Part shown: in pieces, positions 4,904 through 63,330 of the stretch
Position numbering within the stretch: position 1 is the stretch's first letter
Layout of the letters: each line of letters opens with the position of its first letter
Assembly (NCBI GenBank): GCA_023229385.1
Contig: JALNZI010000001.1
Span: 26,419-90,418, forward strand
DNA from: Candidatus Omnitrophota bacterium
Lineage (GTDB): Bacteria; Omnitrophota; Gorgyraeia; Gygaellales; Profunditerraquicolaceae
Reading direction: 5' to 3'
DNA: 64,000 nucleotides
Notes under the pieces: model-generated
What the model saw: only the letters and a program-made list of their open reading frames with translations
Told to the model about the DNA's origin: nothing
The model's database searches: none
Made by a program: the position numbers and the translations under genes

Positions 4904-4910
4904 TATTTAG
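4904..4910 (-). promoter_or_regulatory. late-type box CTAAATA
   Basis: Lies 19 nt upstream of ATG 4884. The spacer contains a GAGG Shine-Dalgarno. Confidence 0.35.
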
Positions 4911-4951
4911 CAAATGCACATGAAGTATTTTATTTTATAAATTAATATAAC

Positions 4952-4987
4952 AAAAAATGGGCCAGCTTTAAATATAAAACCGGCCCA
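4952..4987 (-). terminator. intrinsic terminator after thyX
   Basis: On the minus strand: TGGGCCGG, loop, CTGGCCCA, followed by TTTTTT. Confidence 0.55.
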
Positions 4988-5009
4988 ACACCTAAATAAC
5001 TAATATTTT

Positions 5010-6578
5010 TTAATTATTACTATTAGCTTCAATTTTGCTTTGAATAACTTCTTCTTGTTTTCTTCTATCAGAATATTCATTAAGATTTACTCTAATGTGC
5101 TTTGATAAAGATTTAAAATTATTGTCAAATAATTTATACATAGCCTGAGCTAATCTTCTGTATGAGTAATGTCCAGCTTCACCACTTCTTAATTCAATTA
5201 TATAGGCTAATTCTTTAAAATTACATTCTAATATAAATCTAACATTATGGCCTAATAATAATGCATATTCTGAATTATTATTTTTATCTTTTATTAATTT
5301 AGAATTTAATTTTGAATACTCTTCAAATAAGCTTATATATTTTTCTTTAATATCTAATAATTTATAATCATTTAAAGATTCTGGAATAGAATATCCTCTT
5401 AATGAACTCCATTTTTCAACAATTTGAGTGCAATTACGATGTCTTTGCAAATCTCTAAATGCTCCAATATCACAAATTACTTCAAATTGAATCATTCCAA
5501 CTGCACATTCATCTGGAAAATCATCATGAATGCCTCTTTCTTCAAATGCTAAATTAAATACCTCATCCAATCCTAATGAAGTATCTACTAATACATTACT
5601 ATCAAATAATCCAGTTGCATTTATTAAAGAATATGCTACTTCAAGCTCAATATTGCTAGCTGAATTTAAGTACACTCCAGGTTTTGATTCATTTAGGGGT
5701 AATTCTTTTATTTCAGTTGAACATATTTTCTTAGCTAAAGCGCCTAATCTTCTATTTAAAAATGTATTTTTTTCAACATGATTAATTAAAGCAGCGGTAA
5801 TTTTGCCACATTCTATTTTTAATTTTTCTCCAATTTCTACCACTTCTGGAAACTCAGACGTTAATAATTTAGATATCCATCGTTCTGTTTCTCTAGTGCT
5901 CATAGTTGCACCTAAAGATGTTTTAATTGTGGTTGGAAGTAAATATCTAGCATCATCAAAAGCTTTAGCCGAACAAGTTCTAATCCAAGCATTTTGATTC
6001 TTAAAATCACTTTCAGGAATTATTTCCTTATAATACTCAATTAATCTAGATTTAGCTTCTGAATATACTTGCATTGCTTTTGCAGATAATTCATCTATAG
6101 CTTTATCAATTAAAATATAAGAATCTCCAGAAAAATCCATATATCTAGTTGATTTTTCTTGAAAAGCGGCTAATTTAGATTCTTCTATAAACTTAGAAGC
6201 TCTAATACTAACACCTTCAATAGCCATCATATTAAATGCACTATCTTTTAAGCTATTATGCCCATATTCAATAGACCACTTAGCCATAAATTTATTAGCT
6301 TTTTCCATTATTTTTGCTATATAATTATTAGTAGCTGGTAAATCATTAGTAAAAGATGATAATAATTGATAATATTCAATTGATTCTTCTTTAGCTAAAT
6401 CCTTTAATACCTTTAAAAATCTATCTCTTAAAGATAATCCTGATCTAGAATAGCCTCCTAATAATAATCCCCAAATTGATATTGGCATATTATCAGTTGC
6501 ACAATAAACATTTGAATCATTGTTGGTAAAATAATAAGACAATATAGCCGTTTCAAGCTCTTCAATTGTATTTGGCAT
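5010..6578 (-). CDS. thyX: flavin-dependent thymidylate synthase, long (about 520 aa) two-lobed form
   Basis: The C-terminal lobe carries DLQRHRNCTQ..SSLRGY and ELRSGEAGHYSYRRLAQAM (ThyX RHR and C-terminal Arg motifs). The N-terminal lobe carries AAFQEKSTRY, which is SxRY-like but has no RHR. Confidence 0.6.
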   Translation of the reverse strand: MPNTIEELETAILSYYFTNNDSNVYCATDNMPISIWGLLLGGYSRSGLSLRDRFLKVLKDLAKEESIEYYQLLSSFTNDLPATNNYIAKIMEKANKFMAKWSIEYGHNSLKDSAFNMMAIEGVSIRASKFIEESKLAAFQEKSTRYMDFSGDSYILIDKAIDELSAKAMQVYSEAKSRLIEYYKEIIPESDFKNQNAWIRTCSAKAFDDARYLLPTTIKTSLGATMSTRETERWISKLLTSEFPEVVEIGEKLKIECGKITAALINHVEKNTFLNRRLGALAKKICSTEIKELPLNESKPGVYLNSASNIELEVAYSLINATGLFDSNVLVDTSLGLDEVFNLAFEERGIHDDFPDECAVGMIQFEVICDIGAFRDLQRHRNCTQIVEKWSSLRGYSIPESLNDYKLLDIKEKYISLFEEYSKLNSKLIKDKNNNSEYALLLGHNVRFILECNFKELAYIIELRSGEAGHYSYRRLAQAMYKLFDNNFKSLSKHIRVNLNEYSDRRKQEEVIQSKIEANSNN

Positions 6579-6868
6579 TACTTGCCCACCTTGGGTAAAG
6601 AATCGCCGGTAGCTCGTCTATGTGCCCGAATAAGCACTCTTGAGTCAATTGGATCAGTCTGAATATTATTAGATATTGATAATACTAGCCATTCAATCCA
6701 AATTCCTTCATCATTTTTTATTTCTAAAATTTTTCCTATTTTAGCTAATTTTAATGGGATTAATACTACTGTTTGAACCACTTCATAATTAATTTTACGA
6801 ACTAATGTGCATTGCTTAAAATCACCTTTAACTACTCCACTATCATTTTGAGAAGTATTTACATTCAT
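6578..6868 (-). CDS. hypothetical protein
   Basis: 96-aa ORF. Its stop abuts the thyX start (shared nt 6578). No motif recognised. Confidence 0.5.
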   Translation of the reverse strand: MNVNTSQNDSGVVKGDFKQCTLVRKINYEVVQTVVLIPLKLAKIGKILEIKNDEGIWIEWLVLSISNNIQTDPIDSRVLIRAHRRATGDSLPKVGK

Positions 6869-7326
6869 TTCTTTTTTCCTTTTTTACTATCTATTGCTTC
6901 AAATTCCTTAGAATTTCCATACCAATTTATTAAATTAACATTATCATCACAGGTAGTTTTAACTAATATAAATGGATCATACCCATATATATCACCCATA
7001 ACTAAAAATTCTTCACTTTCAGAAACTGATGATAATTTACTATCATCTTTTAACATTAATCCGCCTTCAATAGCTTTATATATATTCGCAACTGAAGTTA
7101 ATTCATTAGAAAATCCTAATAAAATTCTACCTTCTTCATCAAATTCTTTTAATATAATATCTCTAGGATTCTTAGTACTTACATAAACTCCAGATGGTAT
7201 ATCTGGATTTATACTAATTTCATGCAAATCAGTTAAAGTGTCAAATGTATAATAATCATCAAATTCATATAGATTTAGATTATTATGTTCATTTATCATA
7301 TCTTTAATGAAATTACTTAGCGACAT
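6865..7326 (-). CDS. hypothetical protein (weak SUKH/SMI1-KNR4-like C-terminal pattern)
   Basis: 153-aa ORF with 4-nt overlap coupling to its neighbour. EFLVMGDIYGYDPFILV is only loosely SUKH-like. Confidence 0.5.
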   Translation of the reverse strand: MSLSNFIKDMINEHNNLNLYEFDDYYTFDTLTDLHEISINPDIPSGVYVSTKNPRDIILKEFDEEGRILLGFSNELTSVANIYKAIEGGLMLKDDSKLSSVSESEEFLVMGDIYGYDPFILVKTTCDDNVNLINWYGNSKEFEAIDSKKGKKK

Positions 7327-7892: not shown

Positions 7893-7898
7893 ACATTA

Positions 7899-7907
7899 AT
7901 TATATCA
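7899..7907 (-). promoter_or_regulatory. extended -10 promoter TGATATAAT (TGATATAATTA family)
   Basis: Lies 6 nt upstream of ATG 7892. Its TGA is the stop codon of the 7905-8171 gene. Confidence 0.45.
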
Positions 7908-8647: not shown

Positions 8648-9100
8648 TTAATTACAATGCATTTGAATGTCGTCTTCAGTAAATACATAAAACAACATTC
8701 CATTTGCAGTAGCATATGCGTTAGCTGCTTTAAATTTAGCATTATTCACTACATATTGCTTAGTTTCAGTCATTACAGTTTTTTTAGATCTATGCTCAGT
8801 TTTAGGCGGATTTAATTGCTTTTTTGGTTTAACTTCAATTAATATACGTTTACGTTCACCATTTTGTCCAGCTATCTCAACATAAAAGTCTACAAAATAT
8901 CTATGGATTTTCCCATCTAATGGAGACATATAGGGCACTGTAACTAATTCACTACCCCATTTAACGATATTATCATTATTATCTAAAAACCACATCACTC
9001 TACGCTCCCAAGATGATCTAAAATTAGGAGTATGATCTCCTAAATATTTTTCTTTATTTATTGGGTGATATAATCCAATTGGTGGTAACTTAGAATTCAC
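8648..9100 (-). CDS. T4 gp4-like head completion nuclease (PD-(D/E)xK fold)
   Basis: 150 aa with a GTG start. RSSWERRVMWFLDNN, IHRYFVDFYV and ILIEVKPKKQ fit D...ExK. Size and motifs fit my recollection of the gp4 family. A late box lies 6 nt upstream. Confidence 0.5.
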   Translation of the reverse strand: MNSKLPPIGLYHPINKEKYLGDHTPNFRSSWERRVMWFLDNNDNIVKWGSELVTVPYMSPLDGKIHRYFVDFYVEIAGQNGERKRILIEVKPKKQLNPPKTEHRSKKTVMTETKQYVVNNAKFKAANAYATANGMLFYVFTEDDIQMHCN

Positions 9101-9105: not shown

Positions 9106-9246
9106 TTATTTAGAATATAATTTTTTTAAATATTCTCTCATCTTAATATAATCCAATTCAGCTTTCTTAGCTCTAATTTTAGTATCTTCTGATATTTCAT
9201 CAATACTCTTCTCTGATTGAGAAGATTTTGACTTCTTTGTTTCCAT
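9106..9246 (-). CDS. small hypothetical protein (46 aa), below the ORF-track cutoff
   Basis: Hand-translated as METKKSKSSQSEKSIDEISEDTKIRAKKAELDYIKMREYLKKLYSK*. It fills an otherwise empty 147-nt gap on the coding strand. Confidence 0.35.
   Translation of the reverse strand: METKKSKSSQSEKSIDEISEDTKIRAKKAELDYIKMREYLKKLYSK
9107..9113 (-). promoter_or_regulatory. late-type box CTAAATA
   Basis: 6 nt upstream of GTG 9100. Confidence 0.5.
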
Positions 9247-12517: not shown

Positions 12518-12524
12518 TATTTAG
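12518..12524 (-). promoter_or_regulatory. late-type box CTAAATA
   Basis: 13 nt upstream of ATG 12504. The spacer contains an AAGGA Shine-Dalgarno. Confidence 0.35.
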
Positions 12525-13417: not shown

Positions 13418-13430
13418 TTTGTAATTGTAA

Positions 13431-13437
13431 CTAAATA
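13431..13437 (+). promoter_or_regulatory. late-type box CTAAATA
   Basis: 6 nt upstream of ATG 13444. Confidence 0.5.
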
Positions 13438-13443
13438 TTAAAT

Positions 13444-15724: not shown

Positions 15725-17330
15725 TTAAAGTATTTATTATAGAAAATGTATGGTTTAAAGTAAGAGTTTCTATATTGAATTTTTTCTTTAAGTAATAACC
15801 ATGCCTAGCTATATATTGTAGATTAACTCTACTTCTCCACATATTTCCTGTTCTTTTTAAAATTGATAAATCATCTACTAAATCATAGATAGTGGCAAAA
15901 TCCTTAGTTTCATGTAATCTTAATATTCTACCTATTGATTGTACAATTGTTTCATATGAGCGCAAAGATGATGCAAAAATACAATTATGTAATTTCTTGA
16001 TGTTAATACCTGTTGACATTGTTGTATAAGTAGCAACTAATATAACACCTTCTCTATCATTCATTGAAGTAATAATGGCATCTCTTTTTGTTTTCTTTAT
16101 GCCACCGTATATTATTTCTGTAGTAAATTGAGGATGATATTTGTTTATATGTTTAACAATATCATCCAATTCACCATTTTCTATTTTACTACAAAGAATT
16201 AATGTATTTTGTTTAGGTGTTATTTTACCAGAATTTATTAAATTAGATATGGTCCATAATTTTGATTTATTTAATCTTAATAATTCAACTTCCTCATCAA
16301 ATTTTATATCATTTTGCTTCATAAATTTAATGGATTTTAAATCATAAGGTAACATTACTTCAACAATATTTGCTTTAGCCAATATTCCTCTATCTTGAAG
16401 ATCTTTAGTTTCAGCTAATATTATTTTTTTACCAAACGCACCTTCTAAAGTTTTCACATACAAAGGCTCTTCAGGAATCGTCCCGGTGAATCCTAGTCTG
16501 TATTCAGCATTTATGCATGAATTCAATACTCCTAATAATGTTTTACCATCTTTTTTTGCTCTATGCGCTTCATCTAACATAACCATATTGAATCTATTAC
16601 AGAATTCTTTATCTTTTGATAGTAATCCATCAATTGAATTATATACAGCTATCATTACTGGCTTAGTTAATGCATCTGCTTTTTCAGAGGCAGTAAATTC
16701 AGAATCATATAATCCAACATATTTGTCAATATTATTCCATTTATATGATTTAAAATCTCTATACATTTGAGTAACTAATGCTACATTTGGAACTAACAAT
16801 AATACTTTAAAATCTTTATCTTTATTTAAATGCATTAAATATCTTATTAATAGATAAATTAATACACTTTTACCAGATCCAGTAGGTGATTCAAATAATA
16901 GTCTTTTCTTTTTAATAGCTAATTTAAATCCATTAATTTGAAAATCATATGGATTGAATCCATTTAATTTAGCAAAATTATCAATAAATGAATCTATTTC
17001 ATCGTAATTAATATTATCTTCTAAAAATGATGTTTTAATATCATCACTAACTTCTACTTCAAATGAAGATGCTTTTAGTAATTTAACGGCTTCAGGCACT
17101 AAGCCTAATGGCAAAGCTCCATATATTTTTTTAAATACATGTAATTTACCATCATATCTAGTTATTTTTCTATTTTTGTACCTTTTATCAAATTTATAAT
17201 TTGGAGTATATATTGCAAAATTACCATCTAAATATGATAATGGATTTGCATAAGTAGATTCTGTTTCTGATCTACCTAACCAAACAAATTTAGCCCATAT
17301 ATTGTTTAATTTATCTACTCTAACTGGCAC
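15702..17330 (-). CDS. uvsW: SF2 DEAD/DEAH-box DNA helicase, UvsW-like
   Basis: 542 aa with a GTG start. Walker A is ESPTGSGKS and Walker B is MLDEAH. Also shows GFTGT and the C-terminal helicase motif QSIGRILR. Confidence 0.65.
   Translation of the reverse strand: MPVRVDKLNNIWAKFVWLGRSETESTYANPLSYLDGNFAIYTPNYKFDKRYKNRKITRYDGKLHVFKKIYGALPLGLVPEAVKLLKASSFEVEVSDDIKTSFLEDNINYDEIDSFIDNFAKLNGFNPYDFQINGFKLAIKKKRLLFESPTGSGKSVLIYLLIRYLMHLNKDKDFKVLLLVPNVALVTQMYRDFKSYKWNNIDKYVGLYDSEFTASEKADALTKPVMIAVYNSIDGLLSKDKEFCNRFNMVMLDEAHRAKKDGKTLLGVLNSCINAEYRLGFTGTIPEEPLYVKTLEGAFGKKIILAETKDLQDRGILAKANIVEVMLPYDLKSIKFMKQNDIKFDEEVELLRLNKSKLWTISNLINSGKITPKQNTLILCSKIENGELDDIVKHINKYHPQFTTEIIYGGIKKTKRDAIITSMNDREGVILVATYTTMSTGINIKKLHNCIFASSLRSYETIVQSIGRILRLHETKDFATIYDLVDDLSILKRTGNMWRSRVNLQYIARHGYYLKKKFNIETLTLNHTFSIINTLNELSKGQ
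15731..15737 (-). promoter_or_regulatory. late-type box ATAAATA
   Basis: 6 nt upstream of ATG 15724, inside the helicase 3' end. Confidence 0.45.
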
Positions 17331-17336: not shown

Positions 17337-17343
17337 TATTTAT
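17337..17343 (-). promoter_or_regulatory. late-type box ATAAATA
   Basis: 6 nt upstream of GTG 17330. Confidence 0.45.
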
Positions 17344-17816: not shown

Positions 17817-17823
17817 TATGTAA

Positions 17824-49917: not shown

Positions 49918-49922
49918 ATTAT

Positions 49923-51353: not shown

Positions 51354-51816
51354 TTAATTCGCTTATTTTGCCATGAACCCAATTAACGAATTCAGCTAAT
51401 GAGGTTTTAGGGTCGTCTTGTGAAATGCTGTCTAATTTAGTCCAAATGTCATCTGAAAACATTTTAAACTTATCTTCATCTACATCATTTATGCCCAATC
51501 TTGTGAAAAATGAAGATACATATTCTTTAATATTATCTTGATCGAGCATATCAGCAGTCATTATTTCTATTAAATTATGAATAGCTGGATCATTATCTAT
51601 ATAACTATTAAGTACTTTACCATTTAAAAATATATCAGAATTTTTAACAGTAGATTCTTCAGGAGGCGGCGCAATTTGAACATTACTATTGTTTGGTTCA
51701 TTAGTTGAATCATCGGTAGGTGCAGGCGTTTCATCAGGTGCATCATCTGCTTCAAATATTCCAGTGACAATATTCATAAAGTCATCATTTAAATTATTAT
51801 TAGTAAAAATATCCAT
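51346..51816 (-). CDS. hypothetical acidic protein
   Basis: 156-aa ORF. Confidence 0.5.
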   Translation of the reverse strand: MDIFTNNNLNDDFMNIVTGIFEADDAPDETPAPTDDSTNEPNNSNVQIAPPPEESTVKNSDIFLNGKVLNSYIDNDPAIHNLIEIMTADMLDQDNIKEYVSSFFTRLGINDVDEDKFKMFSDDIWTKLDSISQDDPKTSLAEFVNWVHGKISELNG

Positions 51817-51822
51817 ATATGT

Positions 51823-51829
51823 TATTTAG
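51823..51829 (-). promoter_or_regulatory. late-type box CTAAATA
   Basis: 6 nt upstream of ATG 51816, directly after a terminator. Confidence 0.5.
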
Positions 51830-51833
51830 ATAA

Positions 51834-51863
51834 AATAAAAAAGGAGTTGCTAACAACTCCTTT
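51834..51863 (-). terminator. intrinsic terminator
   Basis: On the minus strand: AGGAGTTG-TTAG-CAACTCCT followed by TTTTTT. Confidence 0.6.
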
Positions 51864-51889
51864 CTATTAACCAACTAATTAATAATTAA

Positions 51890-53299
51890 TTATCTTCCTT
51901 CTCTAATTATTCTTTTAGCTTCCTCTAAAAAGCTTTTAGCTTTATTTTCTACTGATTCTCTAACTACAGCAGCTTTAACTTGTGGAGTTACTGCTTTCTG
52001 AGCAGGAGCTTTTTTAGGAGTAACTGGTTTAGGAATTCCAGACGTAACAGGAATGGTTTCTTGAGATTTTCCGACATCACGTTTATCTTTAGTGAAACCT
52101 GGATTTACTTTATTGACTTCTGTTTCATTTTCAGCTTGCTCTTTAGTCTGAGGAGATACTTTCTTAGGTGCTGAAGCTAATGCTCTTAATTCACCTAATT
52201 TATATCCTGGTTTTGAAGTCTTAGGAGTTGCTTTTAATTGAAAGTCTGGATGTTGAGCACCATCATTTGCTTTAGGATCTCCACCTTCAACAAATTTATT
52301 ATTGTACTCACCAAATAATCCAATTGATTCAAAAACAGCTTCATTTTTTCCAGCTAAAGATTTAACTAATTCTTTTAATTCATCAATCTCAGATTTCAAT
52401 CCTTCTAAAGTAGCTTCTCCGCCTTCTGGAGCGCCTAATGCTTCCGAAGGTATTTCCTCATCACCTGATCCACTAACAACCTCTACAGGCTCTACCTCGT
52501 CAGCAGTGACTACTTTAATAGTATCTTCATCGTCATCTACGTTAGGAATACCGTGTTCACCATGTTCTCCACATTCAGCGCAAACACCTTCATTAGTAGA
52601 TTCTTCCTCTTCTTCAGGAACTTCGGATGTTTCAACTGGATTACCTTGGGTACCGTCTTCATCACCAGCTTCTTCCGAACTTGGATCTGAATCTTCAGTT
52701 AATTTTTCCTTCTCTTCTTCTGATTTTTCTTCAGCAGGAGTTTCGCTAGCTTCATGAGAGGCATCTTCTTCTGAATTTTCTTCAGGAGTGCCTTCATTAT
52801 TCTCAGCATTCTCTTCTGGAATCTGCCCACCATTTTCAAGGCCAAGATCTAAGGATTGTTTACAATATTCAATTATTGCATTCTTTTTAGCTTTTAATAA
52901 TTCATTCTCTTCAACAGGAGTTGATACACTATCTTGTTCAGCTTCGCTTAAATAAGCACTAGTATTAGCAACTTCTTCTAAAATCATCTCTAAAGCTGGT
53001 TCAGAAATGGATTCACCACTAATTTCATCAAGCATATCTTGCAAATTGCGTCTAATAATTGCCTTATCTTCATCAGATAATTCAATATCCTTTGAATCAT
53101 AGTGAACTGGACTTTCAATTCCATTCTCCTGATCATCTAGGTCAACAGTATTATTCAAATCCTCTATTGAGAAGGGATCTGAAGAAGCTCCTGCTGCTTC
53201 GGTTACTGCTGATTTAGCGTCTTGTTTTCTTTGCTGATCTATTGACTCAACAAGAGCTAAAATATTTTCAGTATCTTTCATTGTGTTTAAATATGACAT
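51890..53299 (-). CDS. highly acidic Glu/Asp/Pro-rich protein with a basic Lys/Pro-rich C-terminus
   Basis: 469 aa. AAGGAGA Shine-Dalgarno upstream. G+C is visibly higher than in the neighbouring genes. Confidence 0.55.
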   Translation of the reverse strand: MSYLNTMKDTENILALVESIDQQRKQDAKSAVTEAAGASSDPFSIEDLNNTVDLDDQENGIESPVHYDSKDIELSDEDKAIIRRNLQDMLDEISGESISEPALEMILEEVANTSAYLSEAEQDSVSTPVEENELLKAKKNAIIEYCKQSLDLGLENGGQIPEENAENNEGTPEENSEEDASHEASETPAEEKSEEEKEKLTEDSDPSSEEAGDEDGTQGNPVETSEVPEEEEESTNEGVCAECGEHGEHGIPNVDDDEDTIKVVTADEVEPVEVVSGSGDEEIPSEALGAPEGGEATLEGLKSEIDELKELVKSLAGKNEAVFESIGLFGEYNNKFVEGGDPKANDGAQHPDFQLKATPKTSKPGYKLGELRALASAPKKVSPQTKEQAENETEVNKVNPGFTKDKRDVGKSQETIPVTSGIPKPVTPKKAPAQKAVTPQVKAAVVRESVENKAKSFLEEAKRIIREGR

Positions 53300-53316
53300 A
53301 TCAATCTCCTTATTTC

Positions 53317-53323
53317 TATTTAG
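53317..53323 (-). promoter_or_regulatory. late-type box CTAAATA
   Basis: 17 nt upstream of ATG 53299. The spacer contains AAGGAGA. Confidence 0.4.
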
Positions 53324-53359
53324 TTATTTATGAATTTTAAGTACATTTTTTATAATTAA

Positions 53360-53947
53360 TTAAATGTATTCCCCAATTATTTCGTTAATATTATCTGGCT
53401 TATTATAAATAAAGAATTCATCGAATTTAAAAGCTGCATCAAATGTAACAGGCTCATCAGAATTGAATACTTGATTAAGCTGTCCTAATGTTTCAATGAA
53501 TACTCTTTTAAATCTAAAAATAGTTTTAACCTTATTGTTATTATTCATTAAACATATATCTGCATATGGGCAAAATGCTTGTTTAGCATCCCAATGTTTC
53601 ATGTCTGGGGTATTTTTATCTGTACGATAAGTTGTTCTTTTATATACATCTAACCAATCATATAATAGTAAATAACTATCTAAATCTTCATCTGCAATAA
53701 AAGTAACTTGCAAAGATACTGAGCTAAAATCAGTAACTGCTGAAGTTGGTACAACAGTTGTTGCACCTAAGAATCTATCATATTGCATTTCTGCTTCAAT
53801 TTCAGGAACAGTATATTCTCTAATATTACATTGAATTGATGTTGTAGATAATGTATCATCTACAATTATTGGTAATTTAGAAAAAACTAATACTCCAGTA
53901 CCTTGAACTAACGGATTAAATATTTTATTTGGTAAAGCACCTTGCAT
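53360..53947 (-). CDS. T4 gp19-family tail tube / baseplate-tube-like protein
   Basis: 195 aa. The C-terminus FIETLGQLNQVFNSDEPVTFDAAFKFDEFF aligns with T4 gp19 WPTNVGELQLDWDSNNEIQTFEVTLALDYW. The central VTFIADEDLDSYLLLYDWL aligns with TVTVMNDEAHDARQKFVDWQ. Confidence 0.5.
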   Translation of the reverse strand: MQGALPNKIFNPLVQGTGVLVFSKLPIIVDDTLSTTSIQCNIREYTVPEIEAEMQYDRFLGATTVVPTSAVTDFSSVSLQVTFIADEDLDSYLLLYDWLDVYKRTTYRTDKNTPDMKHWDAKQAFCPYADICLMNNNNKVKTIFRFKRVFIETLGQLNQVFNSDEPVTFDAAFKFDEFFIYNKPDNINEIIGEYI

Positions 53948-53948
53948 A

Positions 53949-56900
53949 TTACCTATTTAGCGGTAATTGATAATAATTAAATAGCTTCCAATTTGATTTG
54001 TTTATAGGAGAATCTTGATAAGTATCAATATAGTTTGAATCTAATTTACCTATATTCTTTAATGACATTTTATATTCAGATTTTTTAACAATTGAAGACA
54101 CTTCAGTACTACTTAATGTTTTATACATTGTTTTTGTTCCAGTTATAGTTGATTTTGATCTACTGCCACCGATACTATATTTATTATTATCAATTCTTAA
54201 TAGTGACATATTTAATAAATTACTATCGTCTTTATATTTAATAATGTAACCATTTTTTACATATTTTAAATTAGATATTCCAACAGTTCCTTCAAATACA
54301 TTGCTTGAAGTTGCATAGAATGATTGGAAATATGACATAAGTCCAGTAATAATATTATATGCATATTTATAATTATTTGGAGGATCAGTGGATGAGCTTC
54401 CATCTGAATAAGTAGTAGTTGTTGGAAACAATTGAACATAATTTTTATCATAATAAACATAATCGTTAGTGAATCCAGAAGTACCCCAATTAACCAAATC
54501 AGTTTTATTTATATTAGAATATTCACTTGTCATTGTATATGAGCTAATTTGAACAACATCTGCACTATTTGAACTAAAATCAATATCATCAATAGATGCA
54601 AAACTTGATATTGGTTTTTTCAATAGATATAATATCTTTGGATTATTAATATATGGATTAATTGAATTTAGCCCACTTACTTTTCCACTAATATCGCCGT
54701 CAATTTGCATAGTATATATTGATAAATTTCTAGCATCAGCTATTGATAAATTAGTTAAATCATAGTCTTTTAATTTTAAATATATTCCAACATCAGGTCT
54801 ATAATATAGATAATCTTTAGAATTAGTACTATTATAATTATTAACAAATTCGTCAATATAATTAATATTATCACCAATAGATTTATTAAAATAATTAGCT
54901 ACTTTTGAATTTGGTACCGTTTTATCATAATTAAAGTAGGTATGAATTATTGTAGATTTCCCATTTGAATCATTTAAAATATTTACAACTGCATTATCTG
55001 AATAATCATAATCATATGAATTTGAATCATCATCATAAGAAGCCGCACCTTTATTATTACTTATTTTTAGGGTAATTTGAGTATTAGTTGTTACATTAAG
55101 TTCATATGGAATTTTACCACATGAGCCAAATGTTATAGATTTAGATATTCCATTTTGGTAAGTTTCTAATATTAAACTTAATAAATCACTAAACACTGTA
55201 TTATTTTGATAGTAAGATGTACCATTTTCTTCTATACCACTAGTAGCATATTCTATAGTTTCATTTATTAAAGCATCTGAACAATCATTAGTGGTAACAG
55301 TATCAGTTGGTGATTTTTTAGAAAAACTTGAAGAAAATTCAGCATATCCTTTGTTTGGTTTATAGTAAAAAACTGATTTATTTTTATTGTATATAAATGA
55401 GCATCTAAATGATATATCATTTATTTTATCATTTTCACTACTAAGATTAGCCATAGTAAAAACTGATTTAGGATTTGAATCAACTGTTAATAGGTATCCC
55501 TTAATATTTTTTACAGGAAATATTTTAGATTCTAAACTAATCCCATCATTATCATAATCTTCATATAAATTATATTTTATAGAATTAATATTTAATTCAT
55601 TAGTAAATAATGAATCTAATTCAGTTTTAGTTAAATTATAATTTAATGCTATATTTTGTAATTTAACGATATCATAATCACTTGTATTAGTATTAGCTAA
55701 TATATATGTTTCAAAATATGGATTCCAATTTGAAATAGCTGAAATATCTACTTCAGTCGAATAGTCACTTAATAAAGTATTGGTTATTAATGAATAAATT
55801 GCGCATCTTAATCTTATTTTATTTTTAACAAAATAATACCCACTGCTAATTCTAATTTTTGAAATATTTGCATCTGTTATAGTTTTGCTGTCAAGTAAAA
55901 CCTCATTTACATATAATTGATATGTGCCATTATATTTTTTTACATAAGCAGTTAAATCACTATCTTGTATTCCAAATTTAAGTACAGTAGCATTGCTTGA
56001 AGTATTTCCAATAGTATAATCTACACTCAATTTCATATTACAGTCAATTGAAGTATATGGTGTGTTTTTATTAATACAAAATTCAGGGGGGTATTCATTT
56101 ATTAGATAATTGGTATCTATGACTGAATTACTGCAAGTATTAGTAAATAAAGTTGAATAATTATATGCAATTTTATTAGTATTTTGGCCTAATACGCACG
56201 AATGTCCATTATTTGTTTTTAGAATTATTTCATCATTATCTACACATACTTTGCTATAACTTAAATCATCACTTTTTAATAATAATAGTAAATCATTATT
56301 TTTATACATCTTTATTTTTTCATTATCAAATAGCCCATAGTTATCAAAATAAAGTTCATTTAAATTAGTTATATCTAATTTAGCACCCTTCCCATAGAAT
56401 GTGTTGAATATTTGGGTTTTAGTATTTTTAGAGATTAAAAAATATTCATTAGCATAAGTTTTTGATATGAATTTAGTATTCATATATGTTTGATAAGATA
56501 AAGGTAAATCAATTCTAGATATATATTCATAATCAATTCCATCAATTCTAGCATAATTACCATTATAACTTAAACATATGTTACAATAAGTACCATCAAT
56601 GAAAACAACTTGCGGATACTTATTAGTTGAAATTGATTTATCAACTGTAGAATCAGAGACAAAATTTATTTTAAATTCAAATTGGCCCCCATCACTAAAA
56701 GTTTTATCCAATACTATGAATAAAACATTTGATAAAGTTGAAGCAGAATTTTTGATAGTTATATAATGATATGTTTCATTTTTTTCTTTATTTAATCTAA
56801 TTAATGAATACTTGCCTTTATTATTAGTTAAATATTTTTGTGAAATTTGTTCATATTCTGATTTATTTTGGTCGTAATTAATTGGATAATAATTATCAAA

Positions 56901-57146
56901 ATCAAATGTCGGCCATACTTTTACAGAATTAATATCATTAGAAGTTGATAGACCTAGCTCACTAAATATTGAACTGCTATCTAATGTATACTCACTTCCA
57001 TCACTAAAATAAAATTCAGTTTTTATTTTAGAAGTGCCTAATAATATATTTTTTAATATAGTATATGCCTTATTTACTGAATCTGATCTTGTTTCAACAT
57101 AATCAACTAAAGCTGCTGAAGAATTACTTTTAGGAAAAACGCCCAT
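53949..57146 (-). CDS. large N/S/T/Y-rich structural protein (fibre or baseplate component)
   Basis: 1065-aa ORF. No sheath motifs recognised. Confidence 0.55.
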   Translation of the reverse strand: MGVFPKSNSSAALVDYVETRSDSVNKAYTILKNILLGTSKIKTEFYFSDGSEYTLDSSSIFSELGLSTSNDINSVKVWPTFDFDNYYPINYDQNKSEYEQISQKYLTNNKGKYSLIRLNKEKNETYHYITIKNSASTLSNVLFIVLDKTFSDGGQFEFKINFVSDSTVDKSISTNKYPQVVFIDGTYCNICLSYNGNYARIDGIDYEYISRIDLPLSYQTYMNTKFISKTYANEYFLISKNTKTQIFNTFYGKGAKLDITNLNELYFDNYGLFDNEKIKMYKNNDLLLLLKSDDLSYSKVCVDNDEIILKTNNGHSCVLGQNTNKIAYNYSTLFTNTCSNSVIDTNYLINEYPPEFCINKNTPYTSIDCNMKLSVDYTIGNTSSNATVLKFGIQDSDLTAYVKKYNGTYQLYVNEVLLDSKTITDANISKIRISSGYYFVKNKIRLRCAIYSLITNTLLSDYSTEVDISAISNWNPYFETYILANTNTSDYDIVKLQNIALNYNLTKTELDSLFTNELNINSIKYNLYEDYDNDGISLESKIFPVKNIKGYLLTVDSNPKSVFTMANLSSENDKINDISFRCSFIYNKNKSVFYYKPNKGYAEFSSSFSKKSPTDTVTTNDCSDALINETIEYATSGIEENGTSYYQNNTVFSDLLSLILETYQNGISKSITFGSCGKIPYELNVTTNTQITLKISNNKGAASYDDDSNSYDYDYSDNAVVNILNDSNGKSTIIHTYFNYDKTVPNSKVANYFNKSIGDNINYIDEFVNNYNSTNSKDYLYYRPDVGIYLKLKDYDLTNLSIADARNLSIYTMQIDGDISGKVSGLNSINPYINNPKILYLLKKPISSFASIDDIDFSSNSADVVQISSYTMTSEYSNINKTDLVNWGTSGFTNDYVYYDKNYVQLFPTTTTYSDGSSSTDPPNNYKYAYNIITGLMSYFQSFYATSSNVFEGTVGISNLKYVKNGYIIKYKDDSNLLNMSLLRIDNNKYSIGGSRSKSTITGTKTMYKTLSSTEVSSIVKKSEYKMSLKNIGKLDSNYIDTYQDSPINKSNWKLFNYYQLPLNR
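53954..53960 (-). promoter_or_regulatory. late-type box CTAAATA
   Basis: 6 nt upstream of ATG 53947. Confidence 0.5.
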
Positions 57147-57152
57147 GCATAA

Positions 57153-57159
57153 TATTTAT
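57153..57159 (-). promoter_or_regulatory. late-type box ATAAATA
   Basis: 6 nt upstream of ATG 57146. Confidence 0.5.
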
Positions 57160-57884
57160 GATATAAATGGATCTGCAAAATTACTTAAAGTCAATGAAGT
57201 AGTTGATATATTATATTCATTATCAGGTATTTCATATAAATCAAGAATAATCCATTTATACCCATTACTGGGAGTATTAACGTATTGAAGACTAACTTTA
57301 AATAATATTGGATATGTATTGTTGGCATTCAGCACCGGAGATTGTTCAATCAAATTGCTTAATCTATTTTTTCCAAGCATTACAATATTACTTAAATTAT
57401 TTAAATCATTTATATATACAAAATGAGTTCCTAATTTTCCTGTAGATGGATTTATTTTTATAATAAAATTAATAATATCTCCTTCATATTGTGCAGCATC
57501 TAAATTTATAGTTAAACCTTGCTCAATATCAAACTTATTATATTCAATATAATGAGTTGGAGGATAATTAGTATTATCTAATGTTATTGTATATTTCCCA
57601 TCATTATCTTTAACTGCACTATCAAAAATAGTAGATCCCCAATATTTAACACCTACTGGTCTATTTTTACTCCAATTACTAATTTGCCCATATGTTTTTA
57701 TATAATGCAAAGATGGAATTGTATAATTTTCAAAAAAAGGTTCATCTGCTACTTTTAAGACAATTTGTATATTATCACTAGTTGTCGTAGCCCAAACGGA
57801 TAATTTACTTATTAGTTCTCTTGTATTAAATTGAACTATATTAAATTTATCAGCTAATCTCTCTAAGGGTGAAATAAAACTCAT
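57156..57884 (-). CDS. structural protein sharing an N-terminal module with the 1281-aa protein
   Basis: 242 aa. FNTRELISKLSVWATTTSDNIQI aligns with YNAREVLNKFSIWASTSDSDVEF of the upstream gene. Confidence 0.55.
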   Translation of the reverse strand: MSFISPLERLADKFNIVQFNTRELISKLSVWATTTSDNIQIVLKVADEPFFENYTIPSLHYIKTYGQISNWSKNRPVGVKYWGSTIFDSAVKDNDGKYTITLDNTNYPPTHYIEYNKFDIEQGLTINLDAAQYEGDIINFIIKINPSTGKLGTHFVYINDLNNLSNIVMLGKNRLSNLIEQSPVLNANNTYPILFKVSLQYVNTPSNGYKWIILDLYEIPDNEYNISTTSLTLSNFADPFIS

Positions 57885-60800
57885 TAGCAGCCAACCTCTT
57901 GATTATTTATCTCAGTGAATCCTAATATAATACTTGATTGATTTTCAGTTGTGGAAGCAATTACTGTATTTTGAGAGAATCCTTCAAAATAGTCACATCT
58001 GATACTAGTGACATTGCTTTTTTCATTTATTATTGACAAATAATTATTGAAATTGCTATCAGAAGGATTTAATAATGAAGAATCAATCGAAACTACATTA
58101 AAACTTCCACCTTTACTGATAAGTAAATTATTTGCGTTAAAACTTATCAAATTATTATATAAAAATGTTTTATTTAATACTGTAGTAGGAGTACCATTAG
58201 TTGATACATTTGTTAATACATATGTTCTATTATATGTTTTGTCATATACTAAGATATAGTGCCCATATTTGTAATTATCATCAGTATATAGGCCATCATT
58301 AACTTGATAATTTGTTTCAAAATTACTATCTAATAAGAATTTTTCGCAATGCCCACTGTTTGCATATACTGTATTCCAATCAAATGTTGCAAATACAAAA
58401 TTAGCAGAATTATCTACTGATATTCCAACTGATTCAAAGGTAATAGTAAAATCGTTTCTATTTATCAATGTAGTATTTGAAGCATAAGCTCTTTTAGTGA
58501 ACAATGATAATGCTTCAATTGGTACACTAAATCTTCCTAAATATGAGTTGTTAATATTTGATAGATTATTAGGTGAAGTTATCTTTATTAATGCTCCAGA
58601 TTTTCTAGAAATATTAGCAACAGCATTTCCATTAAAGCATATCAAAGATATTGGAAGATTAGCTGCACTATTATCTACTACATTATCCTCTAAGCATAGA
58701 TTTAATGCCACTGTATTATCAGTTGAAATAGTATCATTACTAACCACAATTTGGCTAAAATCATTTCCATTACTATCAAGTATTAATGCGCTAACTTCAA
58801 CAATTTCTGAATCATTTCCAGTATTGACAGATATTGATTCGTCACTATTATTTGTTGTTAATTTATATGAGTTAATTTTGTATGAATATTTAGTTGATAC
58901 TTCATTAGATAATATAGCATTATAACTAGTATAACCTTGATTATCAAGTCCTATTACATCAATATATGATGCTGATATGTAATCATTGTATTTGTTAATT
59001 ATTGAATTAACTACTGTAACTACTTTTGTTGATGTCACCAATGAATTATAAGTAACAGATCCCGTTGCAGTAGAGCTATATGCTAATATTAATGTGCTAT
59101 TATTAATTACTGCTATTGTTTGATTATTTAATACATAAGTATTAGTATAATTAGATACATTTAATCCAGTTATTGTTAAATTAATATTTGTAATCGTAGT
59201 ATTAGTAATTAAAGTAAATATTTCAAATTCAGGGATACTAGTATTATCATTTAAATGTGCAACTCCAGTATTTGTCTTATATAAGTAAGAGGTAGAACCT
59301 GAATCATATATAAATCCTGAATTTTCAGATACTACTGAATTAGATAATATTGAACCTAATGTGCCATACGTTGGAGTTATTGTACTAAAATCAGTAGTTG
59401 AATATAATGCAGATCCAAAGAAATAGTAAGCCTTAGTCTTTATATTGTATACATTAAAATATGTATAAATTTTAAATCCATTTGCACTGGAATATATAAC
59501 ATTTAATTTATTCGCATATGAATAATATTGGCTAGTTCCCCCGCCTTCAATTATTGCAAGTCCAGGGTCCGCATTATTCCATATTCTAGTTCCAGATGTT
59601 AAAATTAATGCATGGTTACTTATACTAATATTAAATAATAACCCAATATTATAATCATTGCTTTTACGCTGCATATGGGTATTGGTGCTAATTAGCAATA
59701 TTGATCCAAAGGTAGTTCCATTATAATATGCGCCTAGACTGGCAATTTCAGGTGGATTTGATATTTTTCTAGTAGTATAAGTATATGAATAGCTACTTGT
59801 AGTGGCAAAGTAATTAGGTAGATCTATACTTAATATTTCATTTTCATATTCATCATAATTATAAATACTAATATCAACGCATTGATTAAACTCTGGATCA
59901 ACATTAGTAGTAGTTGATTCAATTTTTAACCAAATAGAATCTTTTATTCCGCATCCACTCAAATTTTCACTAGTAATACTAGTATTGATACTTATTACTT
60001 TATCTAAAGTTAAATTATTTTTATATTTAAATTTATTTAAAGTAACTGTGAAACTATTACCTCTATCATTAGATGAACATACTGTAACACCTTGAACATC
60101 GGAAATAAAGAAATAAGTGTTTATTTGGCCTGAATCACTTGTAGCTTGAACATTAGTAATATCGGTATAAAATGTAGAAATAGTTGTTTTATATAATGGA
60201 GTTGCATAGTTAGGAGTTCTACCTATTAAATAAGAATAAGTTTCACATATTAAATTATACTCATTTGCTGTTGAAGTTGATTCAAAATAATATACATATT
60301 CATAAACAGTTGTAGTATCTGAATTAAAAGTAGTCCAAATATATTTTTCATGAGCTGCTAATACATTAAAATCATTTGTTATTTTAGTGCAAACATCATT
60401 ACCATTAAATGAAGTGCTATTATTTATTTTTGATAATCTAAATGCTTTAATTTGATTATTTACATCATAATATCTTTTTATATCAGATAAATTAGTTTTA
60501 GTATAAATGGGTAATTCTAAATTAGGTATAGAGACTGCACCTTTTTTAACAACAATTTCACTACTAGAACCAATATTGAAATCTATTTCATTTGCTGATT
60601 TTACTGTTAATAAATCTTCTCCATCTAGCGTAAGCGTTCCATTTGTTCCTATGTTTAAATAGTAGGGAATTGAACTACTTTGAGATTTTTTTAAATTATC
60701 TGGAATTGAAGTATTAAAATCTGAATAAGTATTAGTATCTCTAGTTGATACATAATATTTGTCAACTCCACCCTCAACCCACACATCAAAAAATTTATCA

Positions 60801-61729
60801 AATGCTGAGGTGTCATCAGTGCTACTATTTTTAACAAAAAAGCTAAATCCTTCTTTAACACTACTTCCTAATTTTTCAGAATCATTACCTGCATATGCAT
60901 ATTTCCCACCATCAGCAAAATAAGAAGTTTCAGTGTCATTATCATATCCTAATAAATCAAATCCATTATCATCATTTTGAGATAATAAAAATCCTTCTGC
61001 AAAATGAAAATTAATATCTTTAGCATTTAATATGAAATCTATTCCAATATTACCTAAAGTCAATAATGATGTGCTAAAATCTATTAAGTTTGTTTTAATT
61101 CCATCTATTTTTGTATATAATAAATATTCACCTGCATAATTAGTAATTGTTCCTGTTGAAATAGAATTCCCAATACTTATCTTATTAGAATTAATACCAA
61201 TTGCAGTTGTTCCAGTTAAATTAATATTATTTGCTTTTTCTAATATTAAATCTGAAGTTAAGTTGATATTAGTGGTTCCTTCCACATAGCTAAGGGTATT
61301 ATGTCTAATTATTATTGAATTATCATTTCCACTAGACGATTTATCATATATACTACTAACATTTATATGTAATTTGGGGGTAGTTGTGCTTTTTGCTACA
61401 TTTCCAGTAGTGGCTACATATTCATCAAAATACCAGCCAACTCCATTTGATACGAAATCAAAATTCCAATATATATCCCTAGTTGATGTAGTACCTAATG
61501 TACCAAATATTCCACTAGATATTGATGAAAAAGAAGGAACAGTTAATGGTTTTAAATATTCCCCATCTCCAGTTGTTCCATTATTAGTATATGAAGGTAG
61601 TGCATCAAATAAATCAAATTCTACATCTGAATCAGAAGTAGAAGCCCAAATGCTAAATTTATTTAATACTTCTCTAGCATTATAAGTCAATAAGTCAATT
61701 GATTTTAAAATTCTATCTTCATGTAGCAT
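57884..61729 (-). CDS. very large N/S/T-rich tail-fibre-like protein
   Basis: 1281-aa ORF. Confidence 0.55.
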   Translation of the reverse strand: MLHEDRILKSIDLLTYNAREVLNKFSIWASTSDSDVEFDLFDALPSYTNNGTTGDGEYLKPLTVPSFSSISSGIFGTLGTTSTRDIYWNFDFVSNGVGWYFDEYVATTGNVAKSTTTPKLHINVSSIYDKSSSGNDNSIIIRHNTLSYVEGTTNINLTSDLILEKANNINLTGTTAIGINSNKISIGNSISTGTITNYAGEYLLYTKIDGIKTNLIDFSTSLLTLGNIGIDFILNAKDINFHFAEGFLLSQNDDNGFDLLGYDNDTETSYFADGGKYAYAGNDSEKLGSSVKEGFSFFVKNSSTDDTSAFDKFFDVWVEGGVDKYYVSTRDTNTYSDFNTSIPDNLKKSQSSSIPYYLNIGTNGTLTLDGEDLLTVKSANEIDFNIGSSSEIVVKKGAVSIPNLELPIYTKTNLSDIKRYYDVNNQIKAFRLSKINNSTSFNGNDVCTKITNDFNVLAAHEKYIWTTFNSDTTTVYEYVYYFESTSTANEYNLICETYSYLIGRTPNYATPLYKTTISTFYTDITNVQATSDSGQINTYFFISDVQGVTVCSSNDRGNSFTVTLNKFKYKNNLTLDKVISINTSITSENLSGCGIKDSIWLKIESTTTNVDPEFNQCVDISIYNYDEYENEILSIDLPNYFATTSSYSYTYTTRKISNPPEIASLGAYYNGTTFGSILLISTNTHMQRKSNDYNIGLLFNISISNHALILTSGTRIWNNADPGLAIIEGGGTSQYYSYANKLNVIYSSANGFKIYTYFNVYNIKTKAYYFFGSALYSTTDFSTITPTYGTLGSILSNSVVSENSGFIYDSGSTSYLYKTNTGVAHLNDNTSIPEFEIFTLITNTTITNINLTITGLNVSNYTNTYVLNNQTIAVINNSTLILAYSSTATGSVTYNSLVTSTKVVTVVNSIINKYNDYISASYIDVIGLDNQGYTSYNAILSNEVSTKYSYKINSYKLTTNNSDESISVNTGNDSEIVEVSALILDSNGNDFSQIVVSNDTISTDNTVALNLCLEDNVVDNSAANLPISLICFNGNAVANISRKSGALIKITSPNNLSNINNSYLGRFSVPIEALSLFTKRAYASNTTLINRNDFTITFESVGISVDNSANFVFATFDWNTVYANSGHCEKFLLDSNFETNYQVNDGLYTDDNYKYGHYILVYDKTYNRTYVLTNVSTNGTPTTVLNKTFLYNNLISFNANNLLISKGGSFNVVSIDSSLLNPSDSNFNNYLSIINEKSNVTSIRCDYFEGFSQNTVIASTTENQSSIILGFTEINNQEVGC
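57904..57910 (-). promoter_or_regulatory. late-type box ATAAATA
   Basis: 19 nt upstream of ATG 57884. The spacer contains AGAGGT. Confidence 0.35.
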
Positions 61730-61735
61730 ATAACA

Positions 61736-61742
61736 TATTTAT
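61736..61742 (-). promoter_or_regulatory. late-type box ATAAATA
   Basis: 6 nt upstream of ATG 61729. Confidence 0.5.
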
Positions 61743-61750
61743 CAATATTA

Positions 61751-63316
61751 TTACATTATATTTTTTTCATCAAAAACATTAACTTCACTAACTATCCAGC
61801 TTGAATTAGTTGAACTATATACTAATTTAATGTTTACTTTAGCATAAGTTGCTCCATTTAACATTGATGAATCTAATATTAATAATTTTTGTTTTAATTT
61901 TGATGTGTAATTAGTTACATATATTTTACCGCTCCAAAGATAAACAGTTGCTGAATTAGCAGTATAATATCTCCCATCTAAATTATCTATTATTATATTT
62001 AATTCGTCTCCATCATTTATTGTAGAAGTTGATGCAGTCGCATTGTAAATATTAAATTGAACATTAGCATTATTAATTATTGTATTATCAGTATCACTTG
62101 CTCTAAAATAATCTCCTTTGAAATAATATACATTTTTACTAGTATTACCTAGATAATACTCACTATTCATTTGAAGAAGAGCTATTGAATTTATTCCTTG
62201 CTTAATTTCCACTATTGGATTAGTTCCACTTAATTTGTTTAAATATTTACCTATTTGAGCTATTTGTAACTGTAGTTGCATAATAGCTTCAGTTGTATTT
62301 GCTGTAGCTTCTATTTGATTTAAATAAAAATTAGTAGCTTCATCTCTTACGGTATCTACATACATATAAGCATATCCAGCAAAGCAAGGATAGCTATTAA
62401 CTGAGCTTAATGATACTTGTGCATCATAAGTAAAAGAAGCAAGCCCACTGTCATCTCTAGTTTTAAAAATATCTAAAACACTATCACTGCATAAGTCACT
62501 GCTAGTACTTAAATCAATTATTGCAAATAAAACAGGTTCTTCGTCTGCAACAGGTGTTAATGCAGTTATTAATTTATCTATTGGATCAGGGTATGTACTT
62601 TTAGTTACATATAATCCAATTCTATTGAATTTAAAATTACCAATTGAATTTGCTATATTATATGCTTCATTAGCTATTTGACTAGTGATAGCTGGTAATT
62701 CTAATTGGTAATTCATTAGTGATACTTTAGCATCAATAGTGTCATCGGTAGTTTCTACTGCACTAAAGGATTTTATTGGAAAATATTTACTATATTTTTT
62801 ACAAGCTAGAGTAGTTGCAGTAGCTGTATCATAATAAAGAGGTGCCGGTATGTTAGATAGTGTTAATTCACCGTAATGCCCTCCCGAATATTCTCCACTA
62901 CTAGCTTCTTCAGATGCTCCATATAGAACAATTCCAGTAGTTTTAAAACCATATTCTAAGCCCGCTAAAGTAGAATCACTATAATAAGCTTGCAAAGTAT
63001 TTCTTTTTGAGCATTCATCATATTCGTATTTGAAATAATTACCAAACCCTTCTGACATGTTAGTTCCAACACCATAACTAGTTCCAGTACTATTCCAAAC
63101 AAAGGGAGTTTGCCATATATTAAAAATATAGTCTCCATCACTCTCGCCATCTTCATGAGTTAATATTAATTCAGTTGCATTTTCATTTGCTGGGTTATTA
63201 GTGCGTTCAGTTGAATTTACCCAAGCTAAAGCAAAATGGGTAATTGAAAACCAAGCACCGCCAGTAGTATTTGTTGAAATAAATTGTCTACCAATATTTG
63301 TTATAGCTGATTTCAT
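61751..63316 (-). CDS. tail-fibre-like protein with a P2 gpH-type N-terminal pattern
   Basis: 521 aa. ITNIGRQF..SITHFALAWVN...FNRIGLYV...PVLFAIIDL loosely parallels P2 gpH (ITTAGAAKLA..ITTMAVGDG..MRELGLYD..TLIAVAN). Confidence 0.4.
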   Translation of the reverse strand: MKSAITNIGRQFISTNTTGGAWFSITHFALAWVNSTERTNNPANENATELILTHEDGESDGDYIFNIWQTPFVWNSTGTSYGVGTNMSEGFGNYFKYEYDECSKRNTLQAYYSDSTLAGLEYGFKTTGIVLYGASEEASSGEYSGGHYGELTLSNIPAPLYYDTATATTLACKKYSKYFPIKSFSAVETTDDTIDAKVSLMNYQLELPAITSQIANEAYNIANSIGNFKFNRIGLYVTKSTYPDPIDKLITALTPVADEEPVLFAIIDLSTSSDLCSDSVLDIFKTRDDSGLASFTYDAQVSLSSVNSYPCFAGYAYMYVDTVRDEATNFYLNQIEATANTTEAIMQLQLQIAQIGKYLNKLSGTNPIVEIKQGINSIALLQMNSEYYLGNTSKNVYYFKGDYFRASDTDNTIINNANVQFNIYNATASTSTINDGDELNIIIDNLDGRYYTANSATVYLWSGKIYVTNYTSKLKQKLLILDSSMLNGATYAKVNIKLVYSSTNSSWIVSEVNVFDEKNIM

Positions 63317-63317
63317 A

Positions 63318-63330
63318 CTAAATATTTATA
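63318..63330. promoter_or_regulatory. overlapping divergent late boxes (CTAAATA on plus, TATAAATA on minus)
   Basis: CTAAATATTTATA sits in a 15-nt gap between the divergent ATGs 63316 and 63332. Spacers are 6 and 7 nt. Confidence 0.5.

Follow-up and report, generated by a model that had tools for sequence, protein, structure and literature searches.

A late-promoter-like box phased to start codons and Shine–Dalgarno sequences in a clade of uncultured T4-like phages

The window and its phased boxes

We studied a 64-kb stretch of contig JALNZI010000001.1 (hereafter the window, with all coordinates counted from its first base), in which the heptamer [A/C]TAAATA, a sequence that shares its core with the late promoter of phage T4, recurs immediately upstream of gene starts. 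The window has a guanine-plus-cytosine (GC) content of 25–31% (about 27%), and it carries a T4-type replication and recombination module (DNA polymerase, gp41, gp32, primase, UvsX, UvsW, gp46/47 and RNR) together with a virion module (major capsid protein, prohead protease, portal, tube and a gp4-like head-closure protein). No tRNAs are present in the window, and an Rfam scan of its whole length gave no match. The closest cultured relatives share approximately 25% identity in the portal and 30% in the major capsid protein, and megablast of the window against 50,697 phage records returned no match, but landfill, groundwater, wastewater and peat metagenomes hold identical or near-identical sequence in contigs of up to 268 kb, and the phage genome is ∼268 kb in size. 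Judged from its sequence, the phage is an uncultured, deep-branching member of the T4 superfamily. The sole pointer to a host came from one genome-collection scan, in which a 10-kb contig of a relative (L014, JBAZEQ010000073.1; 46% portal identity) was binned in a metagenome-assembled genome (MAG) labelled Ignavibacteria bacterium; this is too weak to use as a host assignment, and may be a binning accident.

On the coding strand, [A/C]TAAATA lies 5–7 nt before the start codon of 16 window genes, and none of the 16 has a Shine–Dalgarno (SD) sequence. Fifteen of these sites had been listed in the original prediction and all were found again, with the same positions and spacers. The additional one is the CTAAATA at 18478–18484 (plus strand), 5 nt before GTG 18490 of a metallophosphoesterase gene, which has an alternative ATG at spacer 11 and an extended −10 element (18457–18466) upstream of the late box. 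Also on the plus strand, CTAAATA (13431–13437) stands 6 nt before ATG 13444, and a box at 63318–63324 stands 7 nt before ATG 63332 and overlaps the minus-strand box 63323–63329, which precedes ATG 63316 by 6 nt. The remaining sites lie on the minus strand. With a 6-nt spacer, CTAAATA precedes the gp4-like head-closure gene 8648–9100 (box 9107–9113, GTG 9100), the portal gene, gp20 (48008–48014, ATG 48001), the gene starting at ATG 51816 (51823–51829, directly after an intrinsic terminator) and the tail tube gene (53954–53960, ATG 53947), in the last case from within the 3′-end of the upstream gene. ATAAATA at the same spacing precedes a 520-aa open reading frame (ORF; 15731–15737, ATG 15724), the UvsW-like helicase gene (17337–17343, GTG 17330), a 1065-aa ORF (57153–57159, ATG 57146), where it overlaps the upstream stop codon, and a 1281-aa ORF (61736–61742, ATG 61729). 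The spacer is 5 nt for the ATAAATA boxes of a 244-aa ORF (48758–48764, ATG 48752) and a 379-aa ORF (49923–49929, ATG 49917), the TAA of the latter box being the stop codon of the upstream gene. It is 7 nt for the ATAAATA of a 208-aa ORF (39067–39073, ATG 39059) and for a box of the form TATAAATA (46137–46143) before ATG 46129 of a 52-aa ORF between portal and protease. The boxed genes are of virion or otherwise late type (portal, tube, gp4-like head closure, sheath-like, gp13-like, UvsW, RuvC-like and large structural ORFs), so that their proposed match with the T4 late classes holds, and no late box accompanies gp55, UvsX, gp46, gp41 or gp32.

This phasing is real and far above chance. Over the window as a whole, [A/C]TAAATA is depleted, with 76 copies on both strands versus 146 ± 11 in dinucleotide shuffles. 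A box at spacer 5–7 was nevertheless found at 15 of 60 mechanically called gene starts, compared with 0.36 in shuffled upstream regions (maximum 4 in 2000 shuffles). Enrichment and phasing thus persist against shuffled controls, and the fixed phasing, not any single hit, carries the signal, as the original prediction had argued. Only 3 of 3155 non-start ATG or GTG codons have a box at this distance, 15 of the 29 upstream copies fall into 3 of 54 spacer bins (binomial P ~5e-12), and an unbiased 6-mer scan ranked TAAATA at spacer 5–7 first, with 16 of its 32 copies there. The spacer histogram is bimodal, with one mode at 5, 6 and 7 nt (3, 10 and 1–3 cases) and another at 13–19 nt. A T at −13 is found in only ∼6–7 boxes, and because the base preceding the box is not conserved, the working unit is the 7-mer. 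All seven positions of [A/C]TAAATA are invariant in 57 + 32 box-aligned sites, while the 14 nt upstream show no conservation and no −35 element. A pyrimidine directly precedes the start codon at 11 of the 16 late sites, and Y(−1)R(+1) is the usual context for transcription initiation at the following purine.

The second mode of the histogram follows the same rule. In this leadered class, with 13–22 nt between box and ATG, 23 of 29 cases from the window and its relatives have an SD core ((A)AGG or GAGG) that begins 5–6 nt past the box (in the window alone, the offsets are 5, 5, 5, 5, 6, 7 and 8), which is the offset of the ATG in the class without SD. Hence, because SD and ATG share one offset, the box is phased to the first translation signal, whether this is an AUG or an SD. 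The sheath-like gene starting at ATG 53299 has two such boxes (53317–53331, minus strand; spacers 17 and 25), with AAGGAG 5 nt after the proximal one. An HNH endonuclease gene (4009–4884) has a box at 4904–4910 (minus strand), 19 nt before its start at 4884, with GAGG 5 nt after the box, which suggests late expression of a probable homing endonuclease. Further leadered boxes on the minus strand are 12518–12524 (13 nt before 12504), 41774–41780 (18 nt before 41755), 44376–44382 (42 nt before 44333), 45242–45248 (13 nt before 45228) and 57904–57910 (19 nt before 57884), and those on the plus strand are 22008–22014 (16 nt before 22031) and a pair within 41779–41789 (14 and 18 nt before 41804); another longer-spacer copy lies 9 nt before 37763. 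The longer-spacer copies proposed originally are therefore present, but two of the start codons given for them are debatable, the ORF list having 34564 and not 34582, and 35505 (TTG) and not 35571. We did not count as a late promoter the ATAAATA at 27542–27548 before the SD of the DNA polymerase gene, which sits in the loop of a hairpin (aacagcc...ggctgtt; 27530–27560, plus strand) and is probably a structural or terminator element.

Conservation of the layout and of the start codons

Portal homologues define a family at 39–65% identity, and every syntenic relative examined (44–65% portal identity, 30–43% GC) has the same box layout, at orthologous and non-orthologous genes. Eleven related loci have 4–10 phased boxes each, against 0.06–0.18 expected. 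Most copies of the motif in the relatives, on either strand, are within 60 nt of a start (for example, 16 of 18 in locus L008), nearly all of them a short way before a gene, and the flanks have fully diverged around an intact box whose first position switches between A and C. The box of the gene at ATG 49917 is retained in all five relatives despite diverged flanks, that of the gene at ATG 39059 in the orthologues of L008, L009 and L010, and that of the 52-aa ORF at ATG 46129, a 54-aa ORF in the relatives, in L009–L011. The layout has been gained or lost gene by gene; the portal gene has a box with a 6-nt spacer in the window, L008 and L009 and an AAGGA-type signal in L010–L012. The sub-clade formed by the window, L008 and L009 prefers a spacer of 6, and the more distant L010–L012 a spacer of 5, which hints at a slightly different start-site geometry of the respective gp55 homologues or RNA polymerases.

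The meaning of the spacer depends on the start codons, and the original prediction had itself considered that the real starts could be downstream internal ATGs. Alignments of eight sets of orthologues, drawn from the window and five relatives, run from residue 1 of the proteins, and for the 1065-aa protein, whose start sits seven residues further in in L010–L012, the box has moved likewise. No alternative in-frame SD-led start was found in the first 50 codons of 21 of the 23 candidate leaderless genes, whereas the other two have one. The UvsW-like gene at GTG 17330 has no alternative in-frame start in its first 50 codons, and the GTG at 9100 is supported by a PHROG 218 alignment that begins at residue 9. 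An in-frame stop within or near the box also supports the annotated starts.

The same stop is the basis of a trivial explanation, in which the layout would arise by chance in AT-rich DNA or as an artefact of ORF calling. At spacer 6 the TAA within the box is in frame, bounds the ORF and could bias start calls (in 12 of 60 genes the bounding stop lies exactly four codons upstream), and the window has only 27% GC. This bias cannot explain the pattern, because the full 7-mer is involved, spacers 5 and 7 are out of frame and the layout is conserved in relatives. Moreover, the shuffles gave 0.36 sites versus the 15 observed, N-termini align from residue 1, a relative with 43% GC has the layout, and the T4-like Campylobacter phage CP220, with 28% GC, has no peak. 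We consider this explanation refuted, with practically no probability left to it.

Early-type promoters and sigma factors

According to the original prediction, the leaderless layout is a property of late genes. Late genes do show it, but it is not confined to them, since TGnTATAAT or TACAAT lies 6–8 nt before the ATG, without an SD, at seven early-type genes, those for gp55, UvsX, gp46, a glycosyltransferase, an exonuclease and two unknown ORFs. In front of the gp55 homologue, the extended −10 element TGATATAATT (23433–23442, plus strand) places TATAAT 7 nt before ATG 23449. The other plus-strand sites are 20125–20131 (start 20137), 26079–26088 (start 26096) and 31636–31645 (start 31651), and those on the minus strand are 7898–7907 (start 7892), 17823–17829 (start 17816) and the TACAAT at 13424–13429, 6 nt before ATG 13417. 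The last shares a divergent gap of 26 bp (13418–13443) with the plus-strand CTAAATA of ATG 13444, and the gap holds just these two boxes. In the relatives, the arrangement is TGnTACAAT followed by 7 nt and ATG. Because a distance of 6–8 nt is that of a normal sigma70 discriminator, transcription from these elements would start on the A of the ATG. TGNTAYAATT is not enriched in the window overall (9 copies versus 7.5 expected), and thus only its position relative to starts is informative; six of the nine are coding-strand copies shortly before a gene. Taken together, the leaderless appearance extends to ∼23 of 61 genes and to the majority of apparent transcription units.

The gp55-type late sigma factor homologue named in the original prediction (23449–24330, plus strand; 293 aa) is confirmed by matches to PHROG 234 (E 7e-15) and to the T4 gp55 chain 7d7c_F of the PDB (E 7e-5). 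The ORFs of the window yielded no homologue of gp33 or gp45, and these may lie elsewhere in the ∼268-kb genome. A second sigma factor, a sigma70-family protein of 392 aa (39156–40334, plus strand), is encoded beside the structural module. It matches PHROG 351, the Pfam domain Sigma70_r2 is weak in the window protein and is found as PF04542 in the relatives, and its position next to the structural module is conserved (18019–19245 in L010, 17429–18652 in L011 and 17414–18643 in L012). Such a protein besides gp55 is unusual for T4-like phages, and it might read the TGnTATAAT promoters.

These observations bear on the idea that the heptamer is a translation signal, namely an A/U-rich element at −12 to −6 that acts as a ribosome-binding site or enhancer of non-SD type, as in Bacteroidota-type (GeneMarkS-2 group B) genomes. 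The motif does sit where an SD would be, and the only host pointer is to Ignavibacteria of the FCB group, whose genomes often use non-SD signals (PMC6028130). However, the heptamer is a late box already known from the T4 family (PMC1524935), in a phage that also encodes a gp55 homologue, the motif is limited to late-type genes, and at one site it directly follows a terminator. It is also found 5–6 nt upstream of bona fide SDs, where a second ribosome-binding site would be pointless, and early-type genes have an unmistakable extended −10 in the same register. Furthermore, a group B motif occurs near most starts, in leadered mRNAs, and replaces the SD, whereas canonical AGGAG SDs are present on ∼20 genes of this phage. 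A translational role for the heptamer is in our judgement quite improbable.

Other features of the window are noted here for completeness. A 122-bp unit occurs as a tandem duplicate with 96% identity at 17862–18105 (plus strand), and is followed at 18122–18445 (plus strand) by ∼325 nt that are ORF-free, GC-richer and hairpin-rich (minimum free energy z = −2.75), inside a divergent gap of 670 bp. No Rfam family matches this region, which could encode a non-coding RNA or serve as an origin or in regulation. The DNA polymerase ORF (27568–31611, plus strand) encodes 1347 aa, of which the best PHROG polymerase match spans residues 642–1329 only. A cluster for nicotinamide adenine dinucleotide (NAD) salvage and synthesis occupies 155–3990 (minus strand), with a NadE-like NAD synthetase, a NUDIX protein and a nicotinamide phosphoribosyltransferase; transcripts that begin with the A of an AUG can in principle be NAD-capped.

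Probable leaderless late mRNAs and comparison with known systems

We put at roughly 0.7 the probability that gp55-type late promoters of this clade yield leaderless or 5′-SD-terminal mRNAs, with early extended −10 promoters in the same register. In this model, [A/C]TAAATA would be the late promoter of the clade, a T4-type box at −12 to −6 that is read by the host RNA polymerase core carrying the phage gp55 homologue, and promoters would be placed so that transcription begins on, or within 1–2 nt of, the first translation signal. For ∼16 window genes this signal would be the A (or G) of the start codon, giving a leaderless mRNA to be loaded by 70S ribosomes through its 5′-terminal AUG, and for ∼8–10 genes it would be the first purine of the SD core, giving a minimal leader of 12–17 nt. 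The TGnTAYAAT promoters would place early-type genes in the same register and make leaderless expression a general habit of the clade. In published work, the T4 box is at −13 to −6, and the CTAAATA of Aeromonas phage Aeh1 starts from −12 (PMC1524935; PMC2988020). With the T4 geometry, a 5-nt spacer puts +1 on the A of the ATG, and a spacer of 6–7 nt gives a 1–2-nt leader, or initiation one position later at the purine. The start sites proposed originally, at or 1–2 nt before the start codon, fit this geometry and are thus supported in silico, as is the leaderless character of the late mRNAs, which should now be extended to early promoters and 5′-terminal SDs. We infer promoter activity for the box, a +1 located ∼6 nt past it on the T4 pattern, and use of the leaderless transcripts as the mRNAs that are translated.

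Several points weigh against this model. The 5′-ends are predictions from box geometry, and orthologous sites across the relatives are not independent observations. The gp55 homologue (293 aa) is longer than the 185-aa protein of T4 and resembles it only weakly, so that its start-site geometry could differ. Three of the 16 late-boxed starts are GTG, which is a poor leaderless start in E. coli, but in some bacteria GUG as well as AUG serves as a leaderless start, and it suffices in mycobacteria (PMC4633059). Finally, the late genes run in the same direction in long clusters, where 20 kb contain only two convincing terminators, so that many copies of each mRNA would be read-through products in which the AUG is internal. 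RNA-run searches returned only wastewater metatranscriptomes, with 6–21% of sampled words, and four of these runs gave sparse contigs of 150–380 nt over 43500–63400 (depth 2–14) without end pile-up; the runs may contain DNA.

Read-through is the basis of the main rival, in which the boxes are real late promoters and most protein comes from polycistronic mRNAs, with SD-less starts used by termination–reinitiation or by A/U-rich, S1-dependent initiation, and with the short spacer resulting from compaction. Consistent with this, gaps between genes in the late region are 1–33 nt, three boxes (49923–49929, 53954–53960 and 57153–57159) overlap the end of the upstream gene or are contained in it, and good terminators are as scarce as stated above. 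However, compaction alone would not fix the spacer at 5–7 nt, nor the SD at the same offset, and early-type genes are in the same register with a different promoter type. Moreover, phased boxes occur without an upstream co-directional gene, in the gaps 13418–13443, 39060–39155 and 63317–63331, the last of only 15 bp and holding just two back-to-back, overlapping late boxes, as well as in the 147-nt gap before 9100. Before ATG 51816, only a few bases separate a strong intrinsic terminator (51838–51865, minus strand) from the box, after which comes the ATG, an order conserved in L008, L010 and L011, and since terminator, box and ATG adjoin, a transcript starting past the terminator would be essentially leader-free. 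Read-through transcripts with internal AUGs must also exist, and coupled or SD-independent translation may coexist with leaderless initiation, but we regard it as unlikely that most protein is made in this way.

The leaderless model can be taken one step further, to 5′-end-dependent translation throughout the clade. The mRNA from every late promoter would then begin with the AUG or SD of one cistron, and among the nested, 3′-co-terminal transcripts of the long late clusters, where terminators are nearly lacking, only the 5′-proximal cistron would be well translated. This extension is speculative and, in our view, doubtful. If it is true, the stoichiometry of structural proteins would be set promoter by promoter, as a bacterial analogue of viral subgenomic mRNAs, and the phage would be free to impair canonical, leader-dependent translation of the host. 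Such one-to-one pairing of promoter and cistron could account for the setting of structural-protein dosage.

A relaxed late box is already known from T4-like phages, and leaderless phage transcription is also known, but from unrelated phages. Our literature search found no paper that links gp55-type promoters with leaderless mRNAs, and the registration of such promoters onto start codons or SDs across a whole clade appears undescribed in the literature searched. The clade comprises large T4-like phages (up to ∼270–300 kb) from wastewater, groundwater, peat and landfill in which the late promoter would have been re-registered onto the start codon, and if this is true, a conserved viral module can undergo complete rebuilding of its promoter–leader–ribosome-binding-site architecture. 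For gene callers, the layout offers a rule for start prediction in such phages (box plus 5–7 nt gives the start). The clade would also be a natural test bed, at low GC, for leaderless and 5′-terminal-SD initiation outside Actinobacteria and Deinococcus-Thermus. The suggestion in the original prediction that the host is especially good at leaderless translation is qualified by the clear AGGAG-type SDs still present on ∼20 window genes.

Late transcription of T4 is a textbook system, with mRNAs that have leaders of ∼20 nt and strong SDs. The T4 promoter (TATAAATA, dependent on gp55, gp33 and gp45) and its relaxed variants share with the present box the TAAATA core preceded by A or C, and T at −13 is likewise not conserved among T4-like phages, the base being variable in RB49, KVP40 and S-PM2 (PMC1524935). 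The lack of a −35 or other upstream element, the location at late genes and the encoded gp55 homologue are further likenesses (PMC1524935, PMC2988020). In contrast to T4, ∼60% of the late boxes of the window phage adjoin the start codon and the rest adjoin an SD. The late boxes in T4 (75–125 kb) are 12–35 nt from annotated starts, with a mode of 27–28 nt and always with an SD, and none is at 5–7 nt. An annotation-free scan showed no peak at 5–7 nt in T4, Nitratidesulfovibrio phage SRB7757, Variovorax phage V45v66, Pseudoalteromonas phage XG4 or the 28%-GC Campylobacter phage CP220. The layout is thus unusual for T4-like phages, as the original prediction had suggested, and its absence even from CP220 indicates that it is clade-specific among the phages tested and not a by-product of AT-richness.

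The classic leaderless phage mRNA is that of lambda cI from PRM, whose 5′-terminal AUG is recognised directly by 70S ribosomes. This mRNA has been used as a leaderless model (PMC11514452), and it concerns a single regulatory gene, whereas the layout described here includes ∼23 of 61 window genes and the structural module. Another precedent is provided by the Thermus phages YS40 (phiYS40) and Lalka27a, most transcripts of which are leaderless and which have a distinct late −10 (bioRxiv 10.64898/2026.04.20.719267). These phages are not related to T4, lack a gp55-type late sigma and use TAGGGT as late element; their 5′-ends were mapped experimentally, while ours are deduced from sequence, and leaderless genes are abundant in their own host phylum, Deinococcus-Thermus. 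Among cellular genomes, the nearest counterpart is GeneMarkS-2 group C (Actinobacteria and Deinococcus-Thermus), in which a −10 located ∼10 nt from the starts of first genes, with SDs elsewhere, is the accepted leaderless signature (PMC6028130). The present system differs from group C in being viral, in its 27% GC and in having a phage late-sigma box besides a sigma70-type −10, and its box-to-SD phasing is without a described counterpart in that work (PMC6028130). What the two have in common is a dual start architecture, with a −10-type box near some starts and SDs on other genes.

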